From positions 1 to 16,861 of the forward strand of contig WJMJ01000030.1 in assembly GCA_014728035.1 (NCBI GenBank): DNA of 16,861 nucleotides, given 5' to 3'. This DNA comes from Promethearchaeota archaeon. Its GTDB lineage: Archaea > Asgardarchaeota > Thorarchaeia > Thorarchaeales > Thorarchaeaceae. Below the pieces are notes generated by a model that had not been told where the DNA came from, did not search any database, and saw only the letters and a program-made list of their open reading frames with translations. Positions 3,791 through 15,383 of the stretch are shown in pieces. Each line of letters starts with the position of its first letter. The first letter of the stretch is position 1. The translations under genes and the position numbers were made by a program.

Positions 3791-3890
3791 TATAATTAAA
3801 GGTTCTAGAAAACCTCTTCGATTATTTCACAATAGACTCTTTAGGAGGAATTCGTACTGATTTTTCAATTGTTGATAAAGGAGAAGCATC

Positions 3891-4466
3891 ATGGAATCAG
3901 AAATTACTGATGATATGCTTAAACTATTGTATATCATACACGAGTACACCAAGCAAAAAAATGAAAAAACGGATCCAATATGGATTAAGGAATTGCCTCT
4001 TGCCACCCTTATTTACAAAGGAACTGTTTCCGGTCTATTTGAAACATATGACTACGCTCCTTGGAGTGTGCAAATGCTTGATGGAACTCGTCAGTGGCTG
4101 AACATAAGTCGTGAAGCAAAAGACGACTTGCAAGATCTTCTGAGACTTGGACTACTTTTCATTCTTCGTCTTAGTACTGGTAGTTACGGGTATATTACAG
4201 CATATCGCGTAACTTCAGCTGGGAATAACAGACTGTCCTACATGATGCCTGAAATGAAAGAATCTGTTCGTAAGCTACTTTATTGTGACTCAAAACATCT
4301 GAAGCTTGTGGAGATTAAGAATCGCCAGTTCTATCTATTCTGTCCTGAATGTGATTGGCGAGAAAAAGTAGCTATTGATGAATTAGAGGATATCCCATAC
4401 AAGTCTAAAGCATATCTTCCAAGATACCTTGGAGTTGGTGATTTTTCAGGAGGCGCTTCAAAATGA
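3891..4466 (+). CDS. Winged-helix-like protein with C-terminal Zn ribbon
   Basis: DLQDLLRLGLL...YRVTSAG is a typical wHTH recognition helix/wing ending; CDSKH...CPEC putative Zn ligands; AAGGAG SD upstream; ATGA overlap with next gene. Confidence 0.7.
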   Translation: MESEITDDMLKLLYIIHEYTKQKNEKTDPIWIKELPLATLIYKGTVSGLFETYDYAPWSVQMLDGTRQWLNISREAKDDLQDLLRLGLLFILRLSTGSYGYITAYRVTSAGNNRLSYMMPEMKESVRKLLYCDSKHLKLVEIKNRQFYLFCPECDWREKVAIDELEDIPYKSKAYLPRYLGVGDFSGGASK

Positions 4467-6196
4467 GCCAAGGGAATATTCGTGATGATTTGACAGAATC
4501 AATGATTTTGAAAGACATCCGTATACTACTTAGTGAGTATATTCCTTGTGATCGGAATATCTTGGAAGACATTGGCAATAAACTGATGTCTACTCGTCAC
4601 GAACATGGGGAATTTGTGACAATGCTTGTTGATAAATTTCCAGAGAGTACGACCTTCACTAGTGAATCCGAGATTAATTTCGTTCGTGTTATTGATGCTT
4701 GTAGTTCTGAATATATTGCGAGTGAGATTAAGATACAAGATCCAGAGGATGACGTTTCTATTGAACAGGAAGAAACAGTTGGGATGTATATCAGTCATGA
4801 TGGGCATGTGGTCTATGGAGCAGAATTATTCGAATCATGCGGTAACTCTACTAATCACGATGGAATATCAATAGATAAGATGTGTCGTGTTGTAACTGAC
4901 CTGATTTATGACAGCTCTCTGATGATGGACACATTGTTAACCCACCACCAGAGAAGACTTATGGATTGTATATACAAAGGTGAATCTAGAAGTAGGTACA
5001 AATTTGTTGGGATTCTGGCCGATTCGATTACTCCTGAATTTAGTGATATGGATGAGTATATGGATGGTGAGGAGTTTCAAAATGAGCTGGAACAATTATT
5101 AGATAACCTAGTTGCGTCACACCGTTTAGAAGATGGAACCATCCTATTCTTGGGAGATGCTGGGTTGATTGTAGTTTCAAAGAACTGGAGTCAATACGAG
5201 TCCTTGGTATCTTTTTATGCACTTGTAAGAAGTGCTGAGATTTTCGTAGACGGTCTCTATCATAGAATGTCTCTTCTTTGGGATGAATTATCACATGTTC
5301 GAAAACTAATTGAACAGACTGCTAGTGGTGACCATTCTGTCATAACACGTGCACAGAACATACTAACTGATGCTTCTGCTAACTTCACAATTATCCAATC
5401 GATTGGCGCTTACCTAAAAAGAGGGTTTGCTTTACTGAAGGAAAAATGGCTAAGAGAAGGTGAAAAAATTGATTCTGAAGCCAAATCTATCCTACATTTT
5501 GAAGAAACTTTCAATCGTTTATTGAATCGAATTAAAGATACAGATATTGATTTGCATAGTCTGTCAAGCGAAGTTGAGGGTTTGCAGACATTGTTATCCA
5601 CACAGATTGAACAACAGATGAGAAGAGTATATAGTGCTTTGAGGGATAACACTCAGAGTACCAGTGAGGTAATCCGAGCCAGCGAAAGAACAGGGAATGT
5701 GTTGAATGTTATCGAGCTGATTCTATCTGGAACAATTGCTTTTGATATTGTATTAGCAATTACTGGCGAATATTCTACAGAATTCCACTTATTCCCGGAA
5801 AGCAACCCATTGGTCTTTTTCGCTCTTGCTATCAGCCTTTGGACTGGTATCGTCATAGTTTTGAAGAAAGGAATGGATTGGCTTGAATCCAAGGTTGAGA
5901 AGAGTCATTTAGTAAGAGTCACATTGAATCAGAAATGTGAAGTTACTGCACTTGAGCAATACCTGTCAAGTAAGGAAATCATATCTATAGATGAGGAGTA
6001 TCAAGATGACTCTGAAGATGTACGAGTTCACTATATAATGCCCTCTACTTCTGATGAAGAGATTAAAGTGACTCTATACTACGACCGAAGAAACGGTATC
6101 ATTCATGATTTGACTATAGAGGCATCGTCAGCCAATATTGCTGATGCAAAGAAAAACATTCTCGAGGAAATCGAGTCTTGCTTTATGAGCACATAG
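4463..6196 (+). CDS. Membrane protein with large soluble N-domain, long helical stalk, 2 TM helices (CorA/Mrs2-like topology, no GMN) and C-terminal soluble domain
   Basis: Hydrophobic segments VLNVIELILSGTIAFDIVLAIT and LVFFALAISLWTGIVIVL separated by a loop containing FPES and followed by KKGMDWL; AGGAGG SD at 4448-4453. Confidence 0.65.
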   Translation: MSQGNIRDDLTESMILKDIRILLSEYIPCDRNILEDIGNKLMSTRHEHGEFVTMLVDKFPESTTFTSESEINFVRVIDACSSEYIASEIKIQDPEDDVSIEQEETVGMYISHDGHVVYGAELFESCGNSTNHDGISIDKMCRVVTDLIYDSSLMMDTLLTHHQRRLMDCIYKGESRSRYKFVGILADSITPEFSDMDEYMDGEEFQNELEQLLDNLVASHRLEDGTILFLGDAGLIVVSKNWSQYESLVSFYALVRSAEIFVDGLYHRMSLLWDELSHVRKLIEQTASGDHSVITRAQNILTDASANFTIIQSIGAYLKRGFALLKEKWLREGEKIDSEAKSILHFEETFNRLLNRIKDTDIDLHSLSSEVEGLQTLLSTQIEQQMRRVYSALRDNTQSTSEVIRASERTGNVLNVIELILSGTIAFDIVLAITGEYSTEFHLFPESNPLVFFALAISLWTGIVIVLKKGMDWLESKVEKSHLVRVTLNQKCEVTALEQYLSSKEIISIDEEYQDDSEDVRVHYIMPSTSDEEIKVTLYYDRRNGIIHDLTIEASSANIADAKKNILEEIESCFMST

Positions 6197-6205
6197 TGAT
6201 AAAGC

Positions 6206-6241
6206 AACCGTACCGTTGGGGCTATATCTGACGGTATGGTT
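6206..6241 (+). promoter_or_regulatory. 15-bp intergenic RNA hairpin
   Basis: 6206-6220 pairs with 6227-6241 (11 WC + 4 G-U on + strand), loop GCTATA. Confidence 0.55.
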
Positions 6242-6265
6242 CTATCTACATGAGGTGTTGGTCTG

Positions 6266-6961: not shown

Positions 6962-7066
6962 TTCCTTTTCTTATAACAAACACACAGACAACCTTAAAAA
7001 TGCCGCATCCATTTTGATTTCTGATTGACTCTTAAGAAAGTCAACCAAATGGAGTGTCTACAAAGC

Positions 7067-7801
7067 ATGTTTTCTTCACAGAGTACAGGATATGACAAGT
7101 ACAGCTCGATGTTCTCCCCGGAAGGACGCCTCTATCAGGTCGAATACGCTATGGAAGCTGTTCGCTATGGTCCTCTTGCTGTTGGAGTAGTAGCAGTTGA
7201 TGGTGTTGTTCTAGCTGGTGAGAAACGTTCTCAGAATACACTCGTTGATTTGGACACTCTCAAGAAGGTTCTACTAGTAGACGATCACATCGGTACTGCA
7301 ATTGCTGGTCTACATGCTGATGCTCGGACACTTATCAAACTAGCTCGACAAAGATCACAGATATTTCGCTTAAATTATGACGAAGAAGCTCCAGTAAGAA
7401 GTATCGTTGTTGATATCTGTGATAGAAAGCATTTCCATACAGTTCATCCTAGTCTTCGTCCATTTGGTGTATCTCTTTTAATTGGTGGTTTTGATTCAGA
7501 GGGTCCTCAGCTTTACTCAACCGATCCTTCTGGTTCATATTGGGGTTGGAAAGCTACTGCAATTGGAAAAGATGCAGATATAGTTCGTGATTTCTTTAAG
7601 GATAATTATGACTCTACTATCGATGTAGATGGAGCCATTAAACTTGCAATTCAAGGTCTGGAAAAAGTAACCTCTGATGATGAGTCTACAGATTTAGCTG
7701 TGAAAGCAAAACTCATGGAAATTGGAAAAATCAATGAAGCAGATCGAAAATTCAAGATTCTTGAAGACTCTGAGGTTGAAGGAATTTTAGAAACCCTATA
7801 A
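7067..7801 (+). CDS. psmA: Proteasome alpha subunit (divergent)
   Basis: GYDKYSSMFSPEGRLYQVEYAMEAV, DGVVLAGEKR, AGLHADAR, RPFGVSLLIGG, LYSTDPSGSYWGWKATAIG. Start likely ATG7067. Confidence 0.95.
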   Translation: MFSSQSTGYDKYSSMFSPEGRLYQVEYAMEAVRYGPLAVGVVAVDGVVLAGEKRSQNTLVDLDTLKKVLLVDDHIGTAIAGLHADARTLIKLARQRSQIFRLNYDEEAPVRSIVVDICDRKHFHTVHPSLRPFGVSLLIGGFDSEGPQLYSTDPSGSYWGWKATAIGKDADIVRDFFKDNYDSTIDVDGAIKLAIQGLEKVTSDDESTDLAVKAKLMEIGKINEADRKFKILEDSEVEGILETL

Positions 7802-8207: not shown

Positions 8208-9092
8208 CTACTTTCGACATTTTTCAATGAAATGATCTATTATCATCGAGGCAACATCTAACTCGGTTACTCGAGATAGTGCACTCCACGAAGGGGATGC
8301 ATTTGCCTCAAGAACACAAGGTCCGTTTTTCGATTCAATGATATCAACTCCAGTATAATCAAGGTTCAATGCTTCAGCAGTTTTTATAGCACATTCTTCA
8401 TATTCCGGTTCCAATTTTGCTAGCTCAGCTTTTCCTCCACCATGTACATTTGTTCGCCATTCTTCTTTGTTCTCTTCTGGAAGATATCTGTACATAGCTC
8501 CAACAAGTTGTCCACCAATTACAAAAGCACGAATGTCACGATCTGGTTTCTCAATCATCTCTTGGACATATAATACCTGCCCGAGCTGATGGATGAATTT
8601 CATTGCACGATATGTTAACTCTGGCATTCCAGCTCGTATAGCTCCCAATCCGCGAGAACCAATAAGGGGTTTTATGACAACGTCACCTGTTTCTTCAACA
8701 AACTCCATCGCGGCTTCAAGATTCTCTCCCACATAGGTTTTTGGAACATATATTCCCGCTTTATGTAATGCAGTAAGGGTGGCATACTTATCCTTAGCAC
8801 GGCGGAAAGAATATGCTGGATTCATGACATAGACTCCAGCATCCTCGAACTGTTCAAGAACACTTATCCTGAAGGTGATTTGATCTCCTGTCCCAAAGCC
8901 AATCGTTCTTACAATAAGTCCTGCAATCTCCGAAATGTCTTCATCTAGGTGAATGAATTTGTGGGGGATTTCTGCACCAAGGTCTGCTAATCTTATTGGT
9001 CTGACATCATGACCTTTAGCTTGTATTGCCTCAATAAGACTCTTAGTTGCCCAATTGTTTACATTTTCGTGATAGGAGATTGAAAATAACAT
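8208..9092 (-). CDS. RimK/CofF/MptN-family ATP-grasp alpha-L-glutamate ligase
   Basis: VMNP..AKDKY, VPKT, VVIKPLIGSRGLG, YVQEMI, DIRAFVIG, WRTNVHGGG, TGVDII, LEANASPSW. Confidence 0.9.
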   Translation of the reverse strand: MLFSISYHENVNNWATKSLIEAIQAKGHDVRPIRLADLGAEIPHKFIHLDEDISEIAGLIVRTIGFGTGDQITFRISVLEQFEDAGVYVMNPAYSFRRAKDKYATLTALHKAGIYVPKTYVGENLEAAMEFVEETGDVVIKPLIGSRGLGAIRAGMPELTYRAMKFIHQLGQVLYVQEMIEKPDRDIRAFVIGGQLVGAMYRYLPEENKEEWRTNVHGGGKAELAKLEPEYEECAIKTAEALNLDYTGVDIIESKNGPCVLEANASPSWSALSRVTELDVASMIIDHFIEKCRK

Positions 9093-9410: not shown

Positions 9411-10406
9411 ATGATAAACGAATTAGTAGAAATCTCGAAAGCAACCCGGGTTGAACGAAAAAACAATCCAATTTTACGAGAAAGGATGAATGTTGCAGCT
9501 AATGGACAACAACCACGCTTTCTTTTGATCTCTTCGATTAAACGAAGTGCACAAGATCTCCAGTTGTTGGATCTCAAGCAAGGTGACGCTTTTTCTGGAA
9601 CAAGGGTACCTGGCCGAACAATACCTCAGGCTGATAAGACTCCAATTTTTTTCAGTGGGCCAGCTGCGTACAATGAACACTTCCCTGAAAAGAATGCAGT
9701 TGTGATAACTTTTGAGCATGATGAGGATGATGCAGTCATTGAAGCTTCTCTCAAAAATGTGTCAGAAAACCCTGATACAAAAGGGATACCATTAGTAGCT
9801 CTGAAAGTGAATTATAACACTGGTGAAATTGAAGCTTATAGCCACTCTTACTTTAGAAATCAAGCTGTGGAAGATCATCTAATTACAAGAGCTAGAACAA
9901 TACCAACAGAAGTCAATGATGATGTAATTGTTCTTGTTTGTTCAGATTCACGAGTACATCCACCTCTAACTTATGCTGGACTACCTTATGCAATACAGAC
10001 TTTGGGCGGACATATTCCTGCCTATACTGGTCAGGATGATGAAACTGCACAATTCAATGCCTTTCTTGAAACTTGGCAAGCAACTGGGTCCGAAAAGAAA
10101 TATGTCGTCTTTGTTCCTCACGGAAAAACAGAGGAAGAGGGTCAGCATTGTGGAGCTGGAAAAGCTTCGTTGAATCCCTCTGATGTCCATGGCACCTATT
10201 TACGTCCAGTTATTGAAACTCTAAATCAAGAGGCATCTAGCTTTGAATCAGCACCTCCTGAATCCCCTGAGCGACGACTTGTTGCACTTGGTGAAGCAAT
10301 TAAGAAGAACTTGTCTACATATCCCGCCTACGACGAAACTAAAATTGAGGTACTCAGACTAGGTATGATTGATACTGTGACAGGTGAAATAAAAGATTTT
10401 GACTAG
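9411..10406 (+). CDS. Two-domain beta-class carbonic-anhydrase-like protein (N-domain degenerate)
   Basis: C-domain: CSDSRV, QTLGG, H-x9-CGA, GMIDTVTGEI. N-domain: NGQQPRFLLISSIKRS, RVPG, VNYNTGEI without metal ligands. Confidence 0.7.
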   Translation: MINELVEISKATRVERKNNPILRERMNVAANGQQPRFLLISSIKRSAQDLQLLDLKQGDAFSGTRVPGRTIPQADKTPIFFSGPAAYNEHFPEKNAVVITFEHDEDDAVIEASLKNVSENPDTKGIPLVALKVNYNTGEIEAYSHSYFRNQAVEDHLITRARTIPTEVNDDVIVLVCSDSRVHPPLTYAGLPYAIQTLGGHIPAYTGQDDETAQFNAFLETWQATGSEKKYVVFVPHGKTEEEGQHCGAGKASLNPSDVHGTYLRPVIETLNQEASSFESAPPESPERRLVALGEAIKKNLSTYPAYDETKIEVLRLGMIDTVTGEIKDFD

Positions 10407-10422
10407 TAAATTCTATGGGAGG

Positions 10423-11106
10423 TCAGTCCTCCCTTCTCTCTATTTTTTCGAAGATTCCATCGCACGGTTTCATCAAATCTTGGTATCTCTCAAACTCTAA
10501 TAGGAATGAATTCAATTTGAAAATCGGTACAATTGGAATTCCTTCATGAAGTAACACTTCTTCTACTAACCATGTCACCAACATTGGATATACTTTGTAC
10601 TCTTGACTTGCAAGTCTTGGCATTTTTCTGTAAAGGATTGACAAATTTCTGGACAGCTCATCTGCTCTCTTCATTTGCTTTTCAGCTGCGTTTTTCAAAG
10701 CTGTAGTTTTTCCTTTTCTAATTCCCCACATTTTTGCATCAATAGTTATGATGGTTGAGCTTCGGACTCCTACTACATCTATTTCCATTCCTTCAATTAG
10801 TGTATTCCCAACTCGTCGAAGACTTTCTACACACTTGAAAGAGTGTTCCTTCATTACCTCTGTAACGAATCCCTCAAAGTCTTTCCAAGTTAGTTGAGCA
10901 ATTACATTTTCAAAATCTAAACCCCGTGAAACTGCAAACATGGCTAATTTCATTCGTTCTTCTCTCGACAGAGTAAGACCCTTTTCATCAAATGTTCCTA
11001 TTCCTATTGTTTGAACGACCTCTATGGTTTTTTGTGTAGGGTTTGAAAACACATTGTTATCTTTTGAATGCTCTAAAATTTCCAAGAGCAGCCCGATATT
11101 TATCAT
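10423..11106 (-). CDS. PD-(D/E)xK nuclease-fold protein (Mrr-cat/NERD-like)
   Basis: LTWKDFEGFVTEVM, EIDVVG...IDAKMW, AAEKQ. Confidence 0.75.
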   Translation of the reverse strand: MINIGLLLEILEHSKDNNVFSNPTQKTIEVVQTIGIGTFDEKGLTLSREERMKLAMFAVSRGLDFENVIAQLTWKDFEGFVTEVMKEHSFKCVESLRRVGNTLIEGMEIDVVGVRSSTIITIDAKMWGIRKGKTTALKNAAEKQMKRADELSRNLSILYRKMPRLASQEYKVYPMLVTWLVEEVLLHEGIPIVPIFKLNSFLLEFERYQDLMKPCDGIFEKIERRED

Positions 11107-11175: not shown

Positions 11176-11670
11176 ATGGCTGAAACCGCAGAAGGATGGG
11201 CACGTGTTCTTACAGCTTTTGAAAACTGGATAGATTATGAAGCATCAGAGTTCGGTCCTTGGACTGGCTATTTCAATCTGGAGAACCTAAGGTCTCTGAC
11301 AAGCAAAGAGCGTCTTGGCTGGATGCATAAGATGCAAGAAGAGCTTATTCCTGGGCGAGTGGATGTGTGTCAATCTGCAGGAGTTGCGTTGGAAGATTTC
11401 CTCCCATATATGCCTGGTGAAGAAGCTCGGAATACCGTTAGATCAATGATAGACTTGACTCAAATTATTCAAGATAGTATGCTTGGAATGAGTGACCAAT
11501 TTGCTCGAATGATGGATGAATACAAGACTGAAGGTCTTGATGAAGCTATTCATTATCTACGAGGTATCATCGATAGTGAGGAAGAGATTCGTCATCAAAT
11601 GAGTTTGTACTCTCAAGGATTTGCCAAGTTAGCAGCTCTAGGTTTGGAGATTCCTGAAGAAATGCTTTAG
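11176..11670 (+). CDS. Hypothetical acidic alpha-helical protein
   Basis: Clean 164-aa ATG ORF with protein-like composition; no motif recognised. Confidence 0.75.
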   Translation: MAETAEGWARVLTAFENWIDYEASEFGPWTGYFNLENLRSLTSKERLGWMHKMQEELIPGRVDVCQSAGVALEDFLPYMPGEEARNTVRSMIDLTQIIQDSMLGMSDQFARMMDEYKTEGLDEAIHYLRGIIDSEEEIRHQMSLYSQGFAKLAALGLEIPEEML

Positions 11671-11752: not shown

Positions 11753-12181
11753 GTGGCGAAACAAATTCAGAGGCCCATCGATATCGGGTCGCAGATACAT
11801 CAGGTGAGTGTGAAATCAACTTGCCAGGTGAGTGTGTTCTCCAGTAGCCGTAAGGTCTACTCAAATAATATTTCTTCTGAATCTCAGATTACTTTTCAAA
11901 GTCTGACTGAAACCTTTCTCCGTTTTGCGGAAGCAAAGATGTCTGATACACAGAAGACTGTTTTGAAAACAAGTGCAGAGATTCTTAGAACACGTGTACT
12001 AACAATCACTGCATTAGCTGATGAGATATCTTGTAGAACAGGTATACCTTATTCAACAGTGAAGTGGAACCTCCGAGCATTGATGGATTTCGGTTTGCTT
12101 ACAGGTGGACATGCAGATAACAAAGGACAGCCTTCCTGTTTGAAGCCAGCAGCTTTGCTTCTGGTCGAGTATCTAAAATAG
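11753..12181 (+). CDS. Winged helix-turn-helix DNA-binding protein
   Basis: TITALADEIS..GIPYSTVKWNLRALMDFGLL. Start uncertain (GTG11753, GTG11810 or GTG11834). Confidence 0.75.
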   Translation: MAKQIQRPIDIGSQIHQVSVKSTCQVSVFSSSRKVYSNNISSESQITFQSLTETFLRFAEAKMSDTQKTVLKTSAEILRTRVLTITALADEISCRTGIPYSTVKWNLRALMDFGLLTGGHADNKGQPSCLKPAALLLVEYLK

Positions 12182-12327: not shown

Positions 12328-12371
12328 TGCTACCCATGTATTGCTAAGCTTTACATACTTGGGTCATTGCA
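12328..12371 (-). promoter_or_regulatory. Candidate SECIS element (eukaryote-like, non-canonical AUGA/UA core)
   Basis: Minus-strand RNA UGC-AAUGA-CCCAAGUAUGU-AAA-GCUUAGC-AAUACAUGGG-UA-GCA; kink-turn-like core, AAA 11 nt after AUGA, apical mini-stem. Confidence 0.55.
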
Positions 12372-13164
12372 TCTTCTTTCCGAACATATCCTTGGCTCTT
12401 TGAAAAAGTGAATCCATCTCTTGAGGATTCTTTGAAGCGACAAGAACAAGATCTACAGATTTGGAATCAGTAGGATTAAGATTTCCCCAATTCCATTGCA
12501 AACCTGTTGCAATATCCTGTGGACCTAATTTTGTTCTTCCTTGTAGGTCGCGATTTGCTTCTAGTTTGAAACTCGTCGGTCTATCCAAGTCCCATTTTGA
12601 GGGAGTGGGGTTGCTCGTCATTGCTACGTATAATGAGCTTTGGTCGTAGACTTTGATTATTCCTGTATCTTTGTCATAAGAACCTAAGTCATCTTTGTAA
12701 CTGATTGGGCCACCGATATCAAAGTCCATGATATTGTATAACTTGAAATCCTTAATCTTCTCATCACTGATATTGCGGGTAGTGTGACGAATTAACATGA
12801 AGGGTTCATTATAGCTCCACACATCTATTTCAAATTGAAGAATTGGTGATTCCTTGAATAGAGGTGTATTTTGAAGAATAAACCTATGAATCTCTTCTTC
12901 ATACTCGTTACTTGTAATAGCTAATCGTTCGCTATCCGTTGATCCACAGACTTGAATTTCTCCATTCATAATGTATGTCACCCAGAAGCCACCTTTGTAA
13001 CTGGCAGGATTTCTGAGCAGCAGACAGTTTTCATTGGACTTGTCAATCAGACTGAGACGTTTGAAGTAGAAACCTATCCGACCTTTTCCTCATGAAACAC
13101 ATTCGACAGTGTATTCTGCATCGAGCCTGGGGTATTGGTTTCCTGTTTCTAAGAACTCAGACAT
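12364..13164 (-). CDS. Putative selenoprotein (266 aa, CxxU at residues 22-25), beta-rich uncharacterised domain
   Basis: ATG13164 with AGTGA SD-like 6 nt upstream gives MSEFLETGNQYPRLDAEYTVECVS-TGA-GKGRIGFYFKRLSLIDKSNENCLLLRNPASYKGGFW, in frame with the annotated 12364..12981 ORF; only one internal stop. Confidence 0.75.
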
Positions 13165-13302
13165 AATAATCACTATTTGCTTGCTGGGAGCATATCTTCT
13201 TTAATTGATATAAGATTAGGGATACTGACTGTTCATTTCTACATGCTTCGTAAAGTTGATAAAGTGCTTGAAGAATTTCCGAGTGATGGGTGTTCTATTC
13301 TT

Positions 13303-14553
13303 ATGACGCAACTTGATATTGATTCCTTAGATAAATGGTATAGAAAACAACTAAAGAAAAAATCAAAGGATTTTCGGAAAAATGCAGAAAAGACCTACAA
13401 ATCTGTTGGACGTACTCTAAAAGATGTTGAAGATTTGTCAAAAGATTTACTTAAAGATGCTACAGAGGACGAGAGTGAAGAAACAGCTACTCGTTTTGCC
13501 AGAAAGATTCGTGAATTAGTTGATGATTTCGATGTGAAGCAGGAAATAACATATGAAAGCACAGAAAATATGCAGTCTGAAATTCAGCAATTCATCAATG
13601 ATCTTTGGGGCGCTGGAGCAAGATGGATTAAGAGAATGGACAAGAAACACAAGAGCACCATCAAAGTTCTAGATAATCTTATGAAAGACCTTTCTCGTGA
13701 TATGAAGATTATCGGAAAACTACTCTATGAATATAGTTGGGTTAAGGATCTAGAAAGAATAGCATCAAGAATCGGCACTTTGCGTGATATGACCTATAGT
13801 CGAGAAATTTTCGAAGAACGAATCAGACAAGTTAGGTTAAAGATTGACCAGGCTAGAAAAGAGTATTTCGACACCAAGGCAAAATATACTGATTTTGTCG
13901 AGAAATCCAATGTCGGCGATTTGTTGAATTTAGATGATGAAGCGGACCGTATTGCAACTCTATTAAGAATGAAGCTTAACACCTTAAAAAAACCCGTTAA
14001 GAAATTTCTTCAGCATGATCATGGAGTTAGAATTAGTCCTGCTGGCTCTAAAGCGCTAATTGACTATTTTGAGGATCCATATGAGGCTATAGTTGAAGAA
14101 CCTGATGGGCAGCCAGGATTGATTGAAGGCCTAGAAGCCCTCAGAAAGGCTGTTGAAACTGATGCCTTTCCATTGAAGGATCGACTTGGTAGACGTGCTA
14201 TTGAAGAAGCTGAATCCATCAAGGACGGAGAGCTCTTCGAGCTTCAGGAACAGGCAAAAGAGATTGAAAGGAAAAGAACTGAATTTGCTGATTCTGACGT
14301 ATATGCAAAAGATGCCAAAATGAAAGCGGAGGTAGAAGAAGCAAGGAAAAATTTGGAATATCATCAAAATGACTTGTTACGGATAAAAGATGATATTGAA
14401 CGTGAACTGGAAAAGATGGAGGAATATAAATCGCGTATTGAAAAGGAGCTTCTAAAACTGTTCAGTGCAAAAGTCACTATTGAATATGGTGAAACTCTTG
14501 AACCTCTTTTAGAAGAATGTAGTGTCGAACCTGTATCAGGTGAGGCGGTTTGA
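13303..14553 (+). CDS. Long coiled-coil protein, unknown function
   Basis: K/E-rich heptad pattern throughout, no Walker motifs; probable start ATG13303 (MTQLDID); TTGA overlap with dtdA. Confidence 0.75.
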   Translation: MTQLDIDSLDKWYRKQLKKKSKDFRKNAEKTYKSVGRTLKDVEDLSKDLLKDATEDESEETATRFARKIRELVDDFDVKQEITYESTENMQSEIQQFINDLWGAGARWIKRMDKKHKSTIKVLDNLMKDLSRDMKIIGKLLYEYSWVKDLERIASRIGTLRDMTYSREIFEERIRQVRLKIDQARKEYFDTKAKYTDFVEKSNVGDLLNLDDEADRIATLLRMKLNTLKKPVKKFLQHDHGVRISPAGSKALIDYFEDPYEAIVEEPDGQPGLIEGLEALRKAVETDAFPLKDRLGRRAIEEAESIKDGELFELQEQAKEIERKRTEFADSDVYAKDAKMKAEVEEARKNLEYHQNDLLRIKDDIERELEKMEEYKSRIEKELLKLFSAKVTIEYGETLEPLLEECSVEPVSGEAV

Positions 14554-15383
14554 GAGTATTAGTCACCTCAGTAAAAGATTTGGCAAGTCAGAATATCAAA
14601 CGGATATTAATAGATGAGTATGGCTTTTCATCAGAGGGCAATACATTTGAAGGCCATGAAATATACACACATGATTCTGATTCCATTCTCATCACTAGTG
14701 AACGAGATTTGATACAGTGTGATCATTTAGAAGCACATTTTGATGCGGAAGTATTCATTTTTTGTTCTCGTCATCGATCAGAATCTGGAAAACCAGCTCT
14801 ACTTGTTCATAGCACTGGGAATTATCTTGCGGAAAATTCCTTCGGAGGGAATCCATTTGAACTCTCTATTTCTACTGCCTCATTGGTTTCAACTGCATTC
14901 AAAAGGTTATTCTCTGAGAGGACATATCGTAATCTAACAGAATTCGATGTTTCATTAGAAGTGAGTCATCATGGGCCAACAAGTATGAAAACACCTCTTC
15001 TCTTCATTGAATTAGGTAGCAATGAGGAATATTGGTCTCATATAGAAGGTGCAGAAGCGGTTGCAGCAGCGGTATTTGATTGCCTTACTGTTTCTATGAA
15101 ACAAAACGCTTCAATTACTTTCGGGGGAAATCATTATGCTTCAAAGTTTAATCGTTTGGTTCTTGAAGAAAATATCCACATCAGCCATATGGCACCGAAA
15201 TATGTTCTTGATGAAATATCCCCTGAAATGGTTGCTCAAATGATTTCTAAAACCTATGAGCCTGTAAAACAAGCTATAATCGACTGGAAAGGCACAACTT
15301 CTAGTCAACGTGAACGAATTCTCCCAATGATTGAAGATCTCGAAATCGATATTGTTCGAGCAAAAGAGCTAAAGATTGACTAA
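14550..15383 (+). CDS. dtdA: D-aminoacyl-tRNA deacylase (archaeal DTD2/GEK1 type)
   Basis: SRHRSESGKPALLVHSTGN, EVSHHGPT, FIELGS, FGGNHYA, SHMAPKY, IIDWKG. Confidence 0.93.
   Translation: MRVLVTSVKDLASQNIKRILIDEYGFSSEGNTFEGHEIYTHDSDSILITSERDLIQCDHLEAHFDAEVFIFCSRHRSESGKPALLVHSTGNYLAENSFGGNPFELSISTASLVSTAFKRLFSERTYRNLTEFDVSLEVSHHGPTSMKTPLLFIELGSNEEYWSHIEGAEAVAAAVFDCLTVSMKQNASITFGGNHYASKFNRLVLEENIHISHMAPKYVLDEISPEMVAQMISKTYEPVKQAIIDWKGTTSSQRERILPMIEDLEIDIVRAKELKID

Follow-up and report, generated by a model that had tools for sequence, protein, structure and literature searches.

Introduction

The closest described architecture to the system reported here is that of CorA and its relatives Mrs2, ZntB and CmaX (PF01544), which combine an alpha/beta cytoplasmic head, long stalk helices and two C-terminal transmembrane (TM) helices followed by a basic stretch. 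The closest described families are PF27231 and PF27230, named MJ1567 and MJ1566_N in the ESM Atlas (Pfam 38.1), both already in Pfam without known function. The namesakes of these families are uncharacterised proteins of Methanocaldococcus jannaschii with consecutive locus numbers, and the family names imply that Methanocaldococcus also has a split pair; the same two families co-occur in fused eukaryotic and bacterial proteins. Here we describe an adjacent gene pair, gene 1 (PF27231) and gene 2 (PF27230), in contig WJMJ01000030.1 of a Promethearchaeota archaeon. The window analysed is the entire 16,861-bp contig (C163) of a 4.3-Mb Thorarchaeota-like genome bin, 97.9% complete with 8.5% contamination. 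Gene 2 has the CorA-type architecture, but differs from CorA in several respects: T-G-E-Y/W and A-F-D/E stand in place of GMN/GxN, an extra C-terminal domain absent from CorA is present, a winged-helix partner or N-terminal fusion is obligate, and there is no hidden Markov model or profile-profile similarity.

A two-subunit membrane complex with a CorA-like layout, whose subunits are fused into one protein elsewhere, is strongly supported by the family assignments, structure models, complex prediction and genomic distribution presented below. In our best overall explanation the pair is one conserved membrane machine made in two halves, and we assign this explanation a probability of about 0.6, with its inference of a channel or transporter and its evolutionary history included.

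Results and discussion

The gene pair and its family assignment

Gene 1 and gene 2 lie on the same strand and are joined by an ATGA start/stop overlap, with a strong AGGAGG Shine-Dalgarno-like site ahead of gene 2. Both elements had been reported in the original prediction, which was made from the letters of this stretch, and both are present at the positions given in Table 1. The sequence motifs on which that prediction had drawn were likewise found in the translations, namely LIYKG, YDYAP and WLNISREAKDD in gene 1, and LLSEYIP, DSS, ITP, DEYMD and EFQNELEQ in gene 2.

Precomputed tags from a large protein collection assign PF27230 to gene 2 (P0002) and to all 40 of its near-length homologues, and PF27231 to gene 1 (P0001) and 25 homologues. 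Direct scans of both proteins with Pfam (expectation value, E, up to 1) and NCBIfam returned only sub-threshold noise (MsyB, SMC, VapB15). The names PF27230, PF27231, MJ1566 and MJ1567 are not mentioned in the papers of the literature library that was searched, and a literature search on Asgard CorA-like and winged-helix proteins returned only ESCRT papers. An exhaustive profile search retrieved 814 representatives, each standing for a cluster at 50% identity, at E below 1e-3. There are short MJ1566-like forms (about 490 aa) without the approximately 100 residues after the second TM helix (TM2) that the Asgard, bacterial and eukaryotic forms have.

Many members (P0067, P0109, P0117, P0118, P0134, P0268 and others) carry the JGI/IMG label 'WD repeat-containing protein 35'. 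This name was rejected, as no WD40 or IFT121 similarity appeared in any scan, and to judge by the sequences the label seems to be a mistake copied from one annotation to the next.

Fused homologues in eukaryotes and bacteria

The original prediction had noted that the motifs of the two archaeal proteins resemble consecutive parts of single long proteins in microbial eukaryotes such as stramenopiles, and this proved correct. In the fused protein of the oomycete Lagenidium giganteum, the counterpart of gene 1 is found at residues 20-203 (32% identity, E 2e-22) and that of gene 2 residues 5-517 at residues 229-747 (24% identity, E 2e-37). When the gene 1 profile was compared with longer proteins, 28 proteins of 691-1393 amino acids (aa) were found to carry PF27231 followed by PF27230, and local re-scoring detected both domains in the same order in 126 retrieved proteins; the linkers in fused homologues are about 20 residues long. 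The fused protist proteins come from oomycete, diatom, prasinodermophyte and ichthyosporean sources (Lagenidium giganteum, Globisporangium ultimum, G. polare, Coscinodiscus wailesii, Prasinoderma coloniale and Chromosphaera perkinsii are the named ones), measure 800-970 aa and contain both parts collinearly. The correspondence extends to structure, the gene 1 model superposing on the N-terminal part of eukaryotic fused Atlas clusters with a template modelling score (TM-score) of 0.82 and a root-mean-square deviation (rmsd) of 2.4-2.7 over 174-179 residues.

Fused forms also occur in bacteria, specifically in Candidatus Wallbacteria, in a Myxococcota bin and on two further bacterial contigs. 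The Myxococcota assignment follows the record name and a typical bacterial context that includes LysM-Peptidase_M74. The split arrangement, in turn, is also present in Thermoplasmata and in another archaeon (L066, JGI 3300031772), where the pair is located between an adenylate/cytidylate kinase-EMC3/TMCO1 group and a SecY-L15-L30-S5-L18-L19e ribosomal cluster. The earlier proposal of a module shared by Asgard archaea and eukaryotes, split in the archaeon and fused in eukaryotes, is therefore not upheld, since bacteria carry fused forms as well and archaea outside Asgard carry split ones. As regards the traits of an Asgard-eukaryote signature, eukaryotic homologues are present, while the family is not rare in non-Asgard prokaryotes.

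Additional domains accompany the fusion in two groups. One cluster (P0090), known only from metagenome and sequencing-run assemblies, has a SprT-like protease domain ahead of the MJ1567 part of a 1393-aa protein, and in a chlorophyte Atlas cluster of fused forms ANKRD40_UBL is found in 63%.

Gene 2 has a CorA-type architecture

In the AlphaFold model of gene 2, an alpha/beta head (approximately aa 10-240) leads into three very long helices that span residues 242-400; the two TM helices come next, and a further alpha/beta domain closes the chain at the C terminus (482-575). The earlier description of gene 2 as a protein with two TM helices is supported by this model and by hydropathy, which peaks near residues 412-435 and again near 448-470; TM2 is followed by a basic stretch. 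Its description as CorA-like is borne out for the architecture by both Foldseek and VIA, with no CorA match at the sequence level. All of the top 50 matches in a Foldseek search of the PDB were CorA/Mrs2 structures (best E 3.7e-5), at low TM-scores of 0.16-0.31, and VIA-align gave Z-scores of 11-12 to CorA, ZntB, Mrs2 and CmaX, which were the sole matches spanning head, stalk and TM helices (model residues 12 to 476).

Residue conservation is concentrated in the head, where E25, N32, Q102, E104, D138, R142, D146, D150, Q163, R178, K180, E208 and Q211 are common to the Asgard, bacterial, Thermoplasmata and eukaryotic forms. Most gene 2 residues conserved across these groups lie there, and others are found in the first TM helix (TM1), at G423, D/E428 and G435. 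The end of TM1 reads T-G-E-W/Y in bacterial and eukaryotic forms.

Several observations on gene 2 weigh against our best overall explanation. The model is only moderately confident, with a predicted local distance difference test score (pLDDT) of 75 and values below 50 for residues 393-414 ahead of TM1. In a wide search independent of Foldseek, generic three-helix bundles reached Z 10-13.5, level with CorA, so the likeness to CorA is architectural and does not prove homology. The Pfam CorA family (PF01544) does not match gene 2 at E up to 1, and a PF01544 scan of the same genome finds two ordinary CorA genes elsewhere and not gene 2. Profile comparison of gene 2 with 10 Asgard CorA proteins by hhalign gave a probability of 0.2% (E 0.35), and its sole local alignment, which pairs AEIFVDGLY with IDAIVDHYF where the first stalk helix begins, is suggestive but without statistical weight. 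Gene 2 also has no GMN/GxN motif, TM1 ending in I-T-G-E-Y in the window copy. Gene 2 is, in sum, shaped like CorA but not assignable to the CorA family.

The same observations bear on a different reading, in which gene 2 would be a CorA-shaped membrane protein that does not conduct and would serve as a scaffold, tether or sensor recruiting partners by its stalk and head. The lack of a GMN motif and of a sequence link to CorA fits this reading, as do the spectrin, SPX and STAT helical bundles that match the stalk as well as CorA does, the extra C-terminal domain, and the ANKRD40_UBL and SprT-like domains added in eukaryotic and metagenomic forms. We consider it rather improbable, given that acidic and glycine residues are conserved inside TM1 across domains of life, a pattern seen more often along a pore or transport path than in a passive anchor.

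Gene 1 is an acidic winged-helix protein

The model of gene 1 (pLDDT 86.6) shows a winged-helix domain at aa 1-130, a small three-stranded beta domain at aa 131-160, which holds a partial Cys/His cluster, and a conserved C-terminal tail. A structure search matched the winged helix to MarR-, PadR-, TubR- and ORC-type domains at Z 7-8, with an rmsd of 2.1-2.7 over 72-86 residues, and these matches together with the confident model support the winged-helix fold that had been predicted. The zinc ribbon predicted alongside it stands in part: the window copy does contain four putative ligands (C132, H136, C151 and C154), but C151 is the sole invariant one across 20 Asgard homologues, and the Lagenidium copy keeps a single Cys.

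The likeness of gene 1 to MarR/PadR regulators consists of the winged-helix fold in its first 120-130 residues. Gene 1 differs from these regulators in having a small beta domain and a docking tail after the winged helix, in matching no helix-turn-helix family in the Pfam and NCBIfam scans, and in its charge. The gene 1 family is acidic, with a median isoelectric point (pI) of 4.66, and the helix in the recognition position (residues 74-85), which reads REAKDDLQDLLR, is acidic as well, which argues against DNA binding. Judged by its sequence, gene 1 appears to be without the basic or polar recognition helix expected of a winged-helix DNA-binding regulator.

These properties also bear on the possibility of a membrane-anchored signalling or transcription device, in which gene 1 would be a DNA-binding regulator held or released by the membrane protein. 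We regard such a device as very improbable. It could account for the MarR/PadR/TubR-like matches, for the tight pairing with a membrane protein and for a PAS histidine kinase encoded upstream in the window; however, the acidic character just described speaks against it, the kinase is not a conserved neighbour, and parts that are permanently fused to a membrane protein in eukaryotes and bacteria are ill-suited to a releasable DNA binder.

Predicted binding and proposed function

Complex prediction indicates that the two proteins bind, with a score of 0.64 for gene 1 and gene 2 against 0.00 for the best control. This mark is reached by 58 of 80 solved complexes and by 2 of 110 mismatched pairs, and these counts are approximate here, as our own alignments were used; halves of a split gene are expected to pass such a test. 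The runs share at least 76% of their contacts, and the pLDDT of the partner is 77 or higher. In the predicted interface, residues 165-183 of gene 1 face residues 20-22, 77-89, 100-127, 139-147 and 243-250 of gene 2, so that the gene 1 tail rests against the head of gene 2, along its beta strands and first stalk helix. The interface includes residues conserved across the Asgard, bacterial, Thermoplasmata and eukaryotic forms, and the docking tail of gene 1 corresponds exactly to the linker of the fused homologues.

The geometry of this interface is relevant to a toxin-antitoxin or defence-like pair, in which gene 2 would be a membrane-permeabilising effector and gene 1 a neutraliser of the Panacea/SocA type. 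The two-gene overlap with the small protein first and the patchy distribution of the pair agree with such an arrangement. So do weak overall-shape likenesses of gene 1: SocA_Panacea clusters (PF13274) are among the Atlas fold neighbours of its model at TM-scores of 0.52-0.57, the first match of a feature search is a cluster with Panacea in 16% of its members, and among PDB structures it comes closest to a chain of the DarTG toxin-antitoxin complex (7yk3_D; Z 9.4 at an rmsd of 6.4). Nevertheless, neither SocA/Panacea nor DarTG is matched in sequence, there being no Pfam Panacea match at E up to 1 and no PADLOC match; no toxin-like partner and no mobile or defence-island context accompanies the pair; the parts form stable single-chain fusions in eukaryotes and bacteria; and in the predicted interface a conserved tail makes the head domain complete and does not plug a pore. 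We therefore hold a toxin-antitoxin role to be most improbable.

The likeliest reading of the pair is a two-subunit oligomeric cation channel or transporter, of which oligomerisation and conduction are the parts that we infer. Gene 2, whose two ends would both lie in the cytoplasm, would contribute a cytoplasmic head, a stalk, a C-terminal pair of TM helices and the extra domain that follows them, and the conserved C-terminal tail of gene 1 would clamp onto the head. The complex would then oligomerise in a CorA-like manner into a gated cation channel or transporter, in which acidic TM1 residues (A-F-D/E and T-G-E-Y/W) may replace the GMN filter, while the head and gene 1 would together form a cytoplasmic regulatory or sensor unit and not a DNA binder.

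Distribution and synteny in Asgard archaea

Of 400 Asgard genomes scanned with a profile, 51, from 24 of the 85 genera, proved to carry gene 2. The gene is found in 9 of the 85 genomes of the window's own family and in none of the 135 genomes of one other family. An earlier pattern-based genome scan, whose patterns were biased toward Thorarchaeota, had reached only Thorarchaeota and Hermodarchaeota. Every Asgard match is one open frame of about 580-620 aa, from which it follows that every Asgard copy is split, and no fused form was found among the 51 genomes carrying the gene.

At every Asgard locus with sufficient upstream DNA, a gene 1 homologue lies directly upstream of gene 2 on the same strand. 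Across 28 Asgard loci, which represent at least 10 groups at the family level, the stop-to-start spacing stays between -11 and +24 nt; such tight same-strand adjacency indicates that the coupling is not due to chance, and the adjacency expected from the window was thus confirmed across Asgard genomes. GGAGG/GGTG sites are similarly placed upstream of gene 2 in many of these loci. Three divergent Asgard short forms (about 480-510 aa), which are without the C-terminal domain, also have gene 1 upstream. In one of these three (L052, G284:C74), the short MJ1566-like gene has not one but two gene 1 homologues in tandem ahead of it, in open reading frames (ORFs) of 195 aa and 222 aa.

Analysis of conserved neighbours at the Asgard loci found nothing kept beyond the gene 1-gene 2 pair itself. 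The NrdG2 activase downstream accompanies the pair only in close Thorarchaeota relatives, and an ABC ATPase cluster near the pair in six loci was judged coincidental.

Phylogeny and evolutionary history

Two trees were inferred, one with FastTree from 119 sequences and one with IQ-TREE from 48 sequences (LG+C20+F+G4, rooted on the short Asgard forms), and they agree on the main split. In the IQ-TREE analysis, a 100/97 branch separates all long Asgard forms from a clan of P0124, Thermoplasmata, bacteria and eukaryotes. On the non-Asgard side, the archaeon with the ribosomal context is followed in order by Thermoplasmata, the bacterial fused forms, two unlabelled fused proteins and a crown. In the crown clade (98/97), every named eukaryote is joined by the Myxococcota protein and by one further protein, which comes from a prokaryote-like contig. 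The nearest tree neighbours of the eukaryotic clade are bacterial fused forms and not Asgard sequences, and the Heimdallarchaeaceae copies group with Thorarchaeota and not near the eukaryotes. Phylogeny thus gives no direct adjacency of Asgard archaea and eukaryotes, which the proposal of a shared Asgard-eukaryote module had led one to look for, although the corresponding approximately unbiased (AU) test is borderline.

According to the most economical reading of these trees, a single fusion took place, and its product became common to bacteria and eukaryotes via horizontal transfer in one direction or the other; vertical descent from Asgard archaea to eukaryotes is not the best fit. Three points qualify this history. 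A tree constrained to unite the eight non-Asgard prokaryotic rows in one clan is worse by 20.5 log-likelihood units, with an AU p of 0.047, which is a borderline result; the group used in the AU test was defined after the tree had been seen; and the outgroup consists of long-branch short forms, which makes the root uncertain.

Given these qualifications, a true Asgard-derived eukaryotic signature has to be weighed, in which the eukaryotic stem inherited the split Asgard pair vertically and fused it, and bacteria later received their fused copies from (proto-)eukaryotes or unsampled Asgard archaea. When the tree is rooted on the outgroup, the non-Asgard clan falls within a grade of Asgard forms, and the topology that allows direct Asgard-eukaryote adjacency is rejected only at the borderline level mentioned above. 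In addition, eukaryotic members occur in stramenopiles, Archaeplastida and Holozoa in many 50%-identity clusters, suggesting an old eukaryotic gene, and the Myxococcota copy sits inside the eukaryotic crown, as expected of a transfer from a eukaryote to a bacterium. Against this, an archaeon that does not cluster with Asgard, Thermoplasmata and at least three bacterial lineages stand between Asgard archaea and the eukaryotic crown; the Heimdallarchaeaceae copies are placed away from eukaryotes; none of the gene-bearing Asgard genomes has a fused form; and the distribution in Asgard archaea is patchy, down to complete absence from one family. We consider vertical inheritance unlikely, while granting it a real chance. 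A bolder combination, which we judge improbable, would make the pair an unrecognised ancient class of gated cation channel, distantly related to CorA, with an acidic TM1 ring and a winged-helix regulatory subunit, whose eukaryotic single-chain version arose when the stem lineage of eukaryotes fused the split Asgard pair and whose bacterial copies are secondary transfers.

With respect to the preferred history of one fusion and horizontal transfer, the pair is an old, patchily distributed prokaryotic module that is always split in archaea and apparently was fused once.

Other features of the window

The features of the window are collected in Table 1. In a search for sequencing runs no entry was listed, nor any RNA holder. 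The stable hairpin just 3' of gene 2 has a stem of 15-17 bp, follows the triple stop of gene 2 and precedes nrdG, without a T-run; it is possibly a transcript end or processing site separating the pair from nrdG.

Table 1. Coordinates of the gene pair, its parts and other features of the 16,861-bp window.
Feature	Position	Strand	Basis or remark
GGAG, ribosome-binding-like site of gene 1	3880-3883	+	7 nt ahead of start codon; read from sequence
Gene 1, 191 aa, PF27231 (MJ1567)	3891-4466	+	ORF list, translation, family tag, model
Conserved C-terminal tail of gene 1, aa 165-183 (E166, D167, Y170, Y175, P177)	4383-4439	+	Conservation, predicted interface, collinearity
AGGAGG, Shine-Dalgarno-like site of gene 2, within the 3' end of gene 1	4448-4453	+	9 nt before gene 2 ATG
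ATGA start/stop overlap of gene 1 and gene 2	4463-4466	+	Gene 2 ATG 4463-4465, gene 1 TGA 4464-4466
Gene 2, 577 aa, PF27230 (MJ1566_N), CorA-shaped membrane protein	4463-6196	+	ORF, family tag, model, fold searches
Gene 2 cytoplasmic alpha/beta head, aa 10-240	4490-5182	+	Model; docking surface in complex prediction
Gene 2 long stalk helices, aa 242-410	5186-5692	+	Model; aligned to CorA/Mrs2/ZntB stalks
Gene 2 TM1, aa 411-436; G423, A-F-[D/E] (426-428), end motif T-G-E-Y	5693-5770	+	Hydropathy, conservation
Gene 2 TM2, aa 449-470, then basic stretch LKKG	5807-5872	+	Model, hydropathy
Gene 2 extra C-terminal alpha/beta domain, aa 482-575	5906-6187	+	Model
Hairpin just 3' of gene 2 stop	6203-6243	+	Folding: -25.7 kcal/mol, z -2.5
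ORF without NCBIfam family	9411-10406	+	Sizeable, downstream of pair
ORF without NCBIfam family	10423-11106	-	Sizeable, downstream of pair
ORF without NCBIfam family	11176-11670	+	Sizeable, downstream of pair
ORF without NCBIfam family	11753-12181	+	Sizeable, downstream of pair
ORF without NCBIfam family	12364-12981	-	Sizeable, downstream of pair
ORF without NCBIfam family	13177-14553	+	Sizeable, downstream of pair

Three of the six downstream ORFs without an NCBIfam family were also scanned against Pfam, again with no family found. All six stand between recognisable housekeeping genes, encoding a proteasome alpha subunit (7025-7801), a RimK-like protein (8208-9092) and a D-aminoacyl-tRNA deacylase (14550-15383). 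The same 129-nt sequence, 99% identical, stands at both contig ends (1-129 and 16733-16861) and might have arisen where the assembly of a circular or repeat-bounded piece overlapped itself; none of the annotated ORFs of the contig was recognised as a mobility gene.

Implications

The family to which the pair belongs is large, its 814 clusters extending over archaea, some bacteria and many protists, including oomycetes, diatoms, green algae and ichthyosporeans, and it is without a studied member and absent from the usual model organisms. For eukaryogenesis the pair is mainly a cautionary case, in that a gene which appears to be split in Asgard archaea and fused in eukaryotes turns out to have bacterial fused intermediates. 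If the complex is a true channel, its filter would differ from that of the CorA/Mrs2 design and its regulatory subunit would be built in, which would make it either a new offshoot of that design or a look-alike that arose by convergence; the natural occurrence of split and fused forms would then offer a ready handle for dissecting its regulation.

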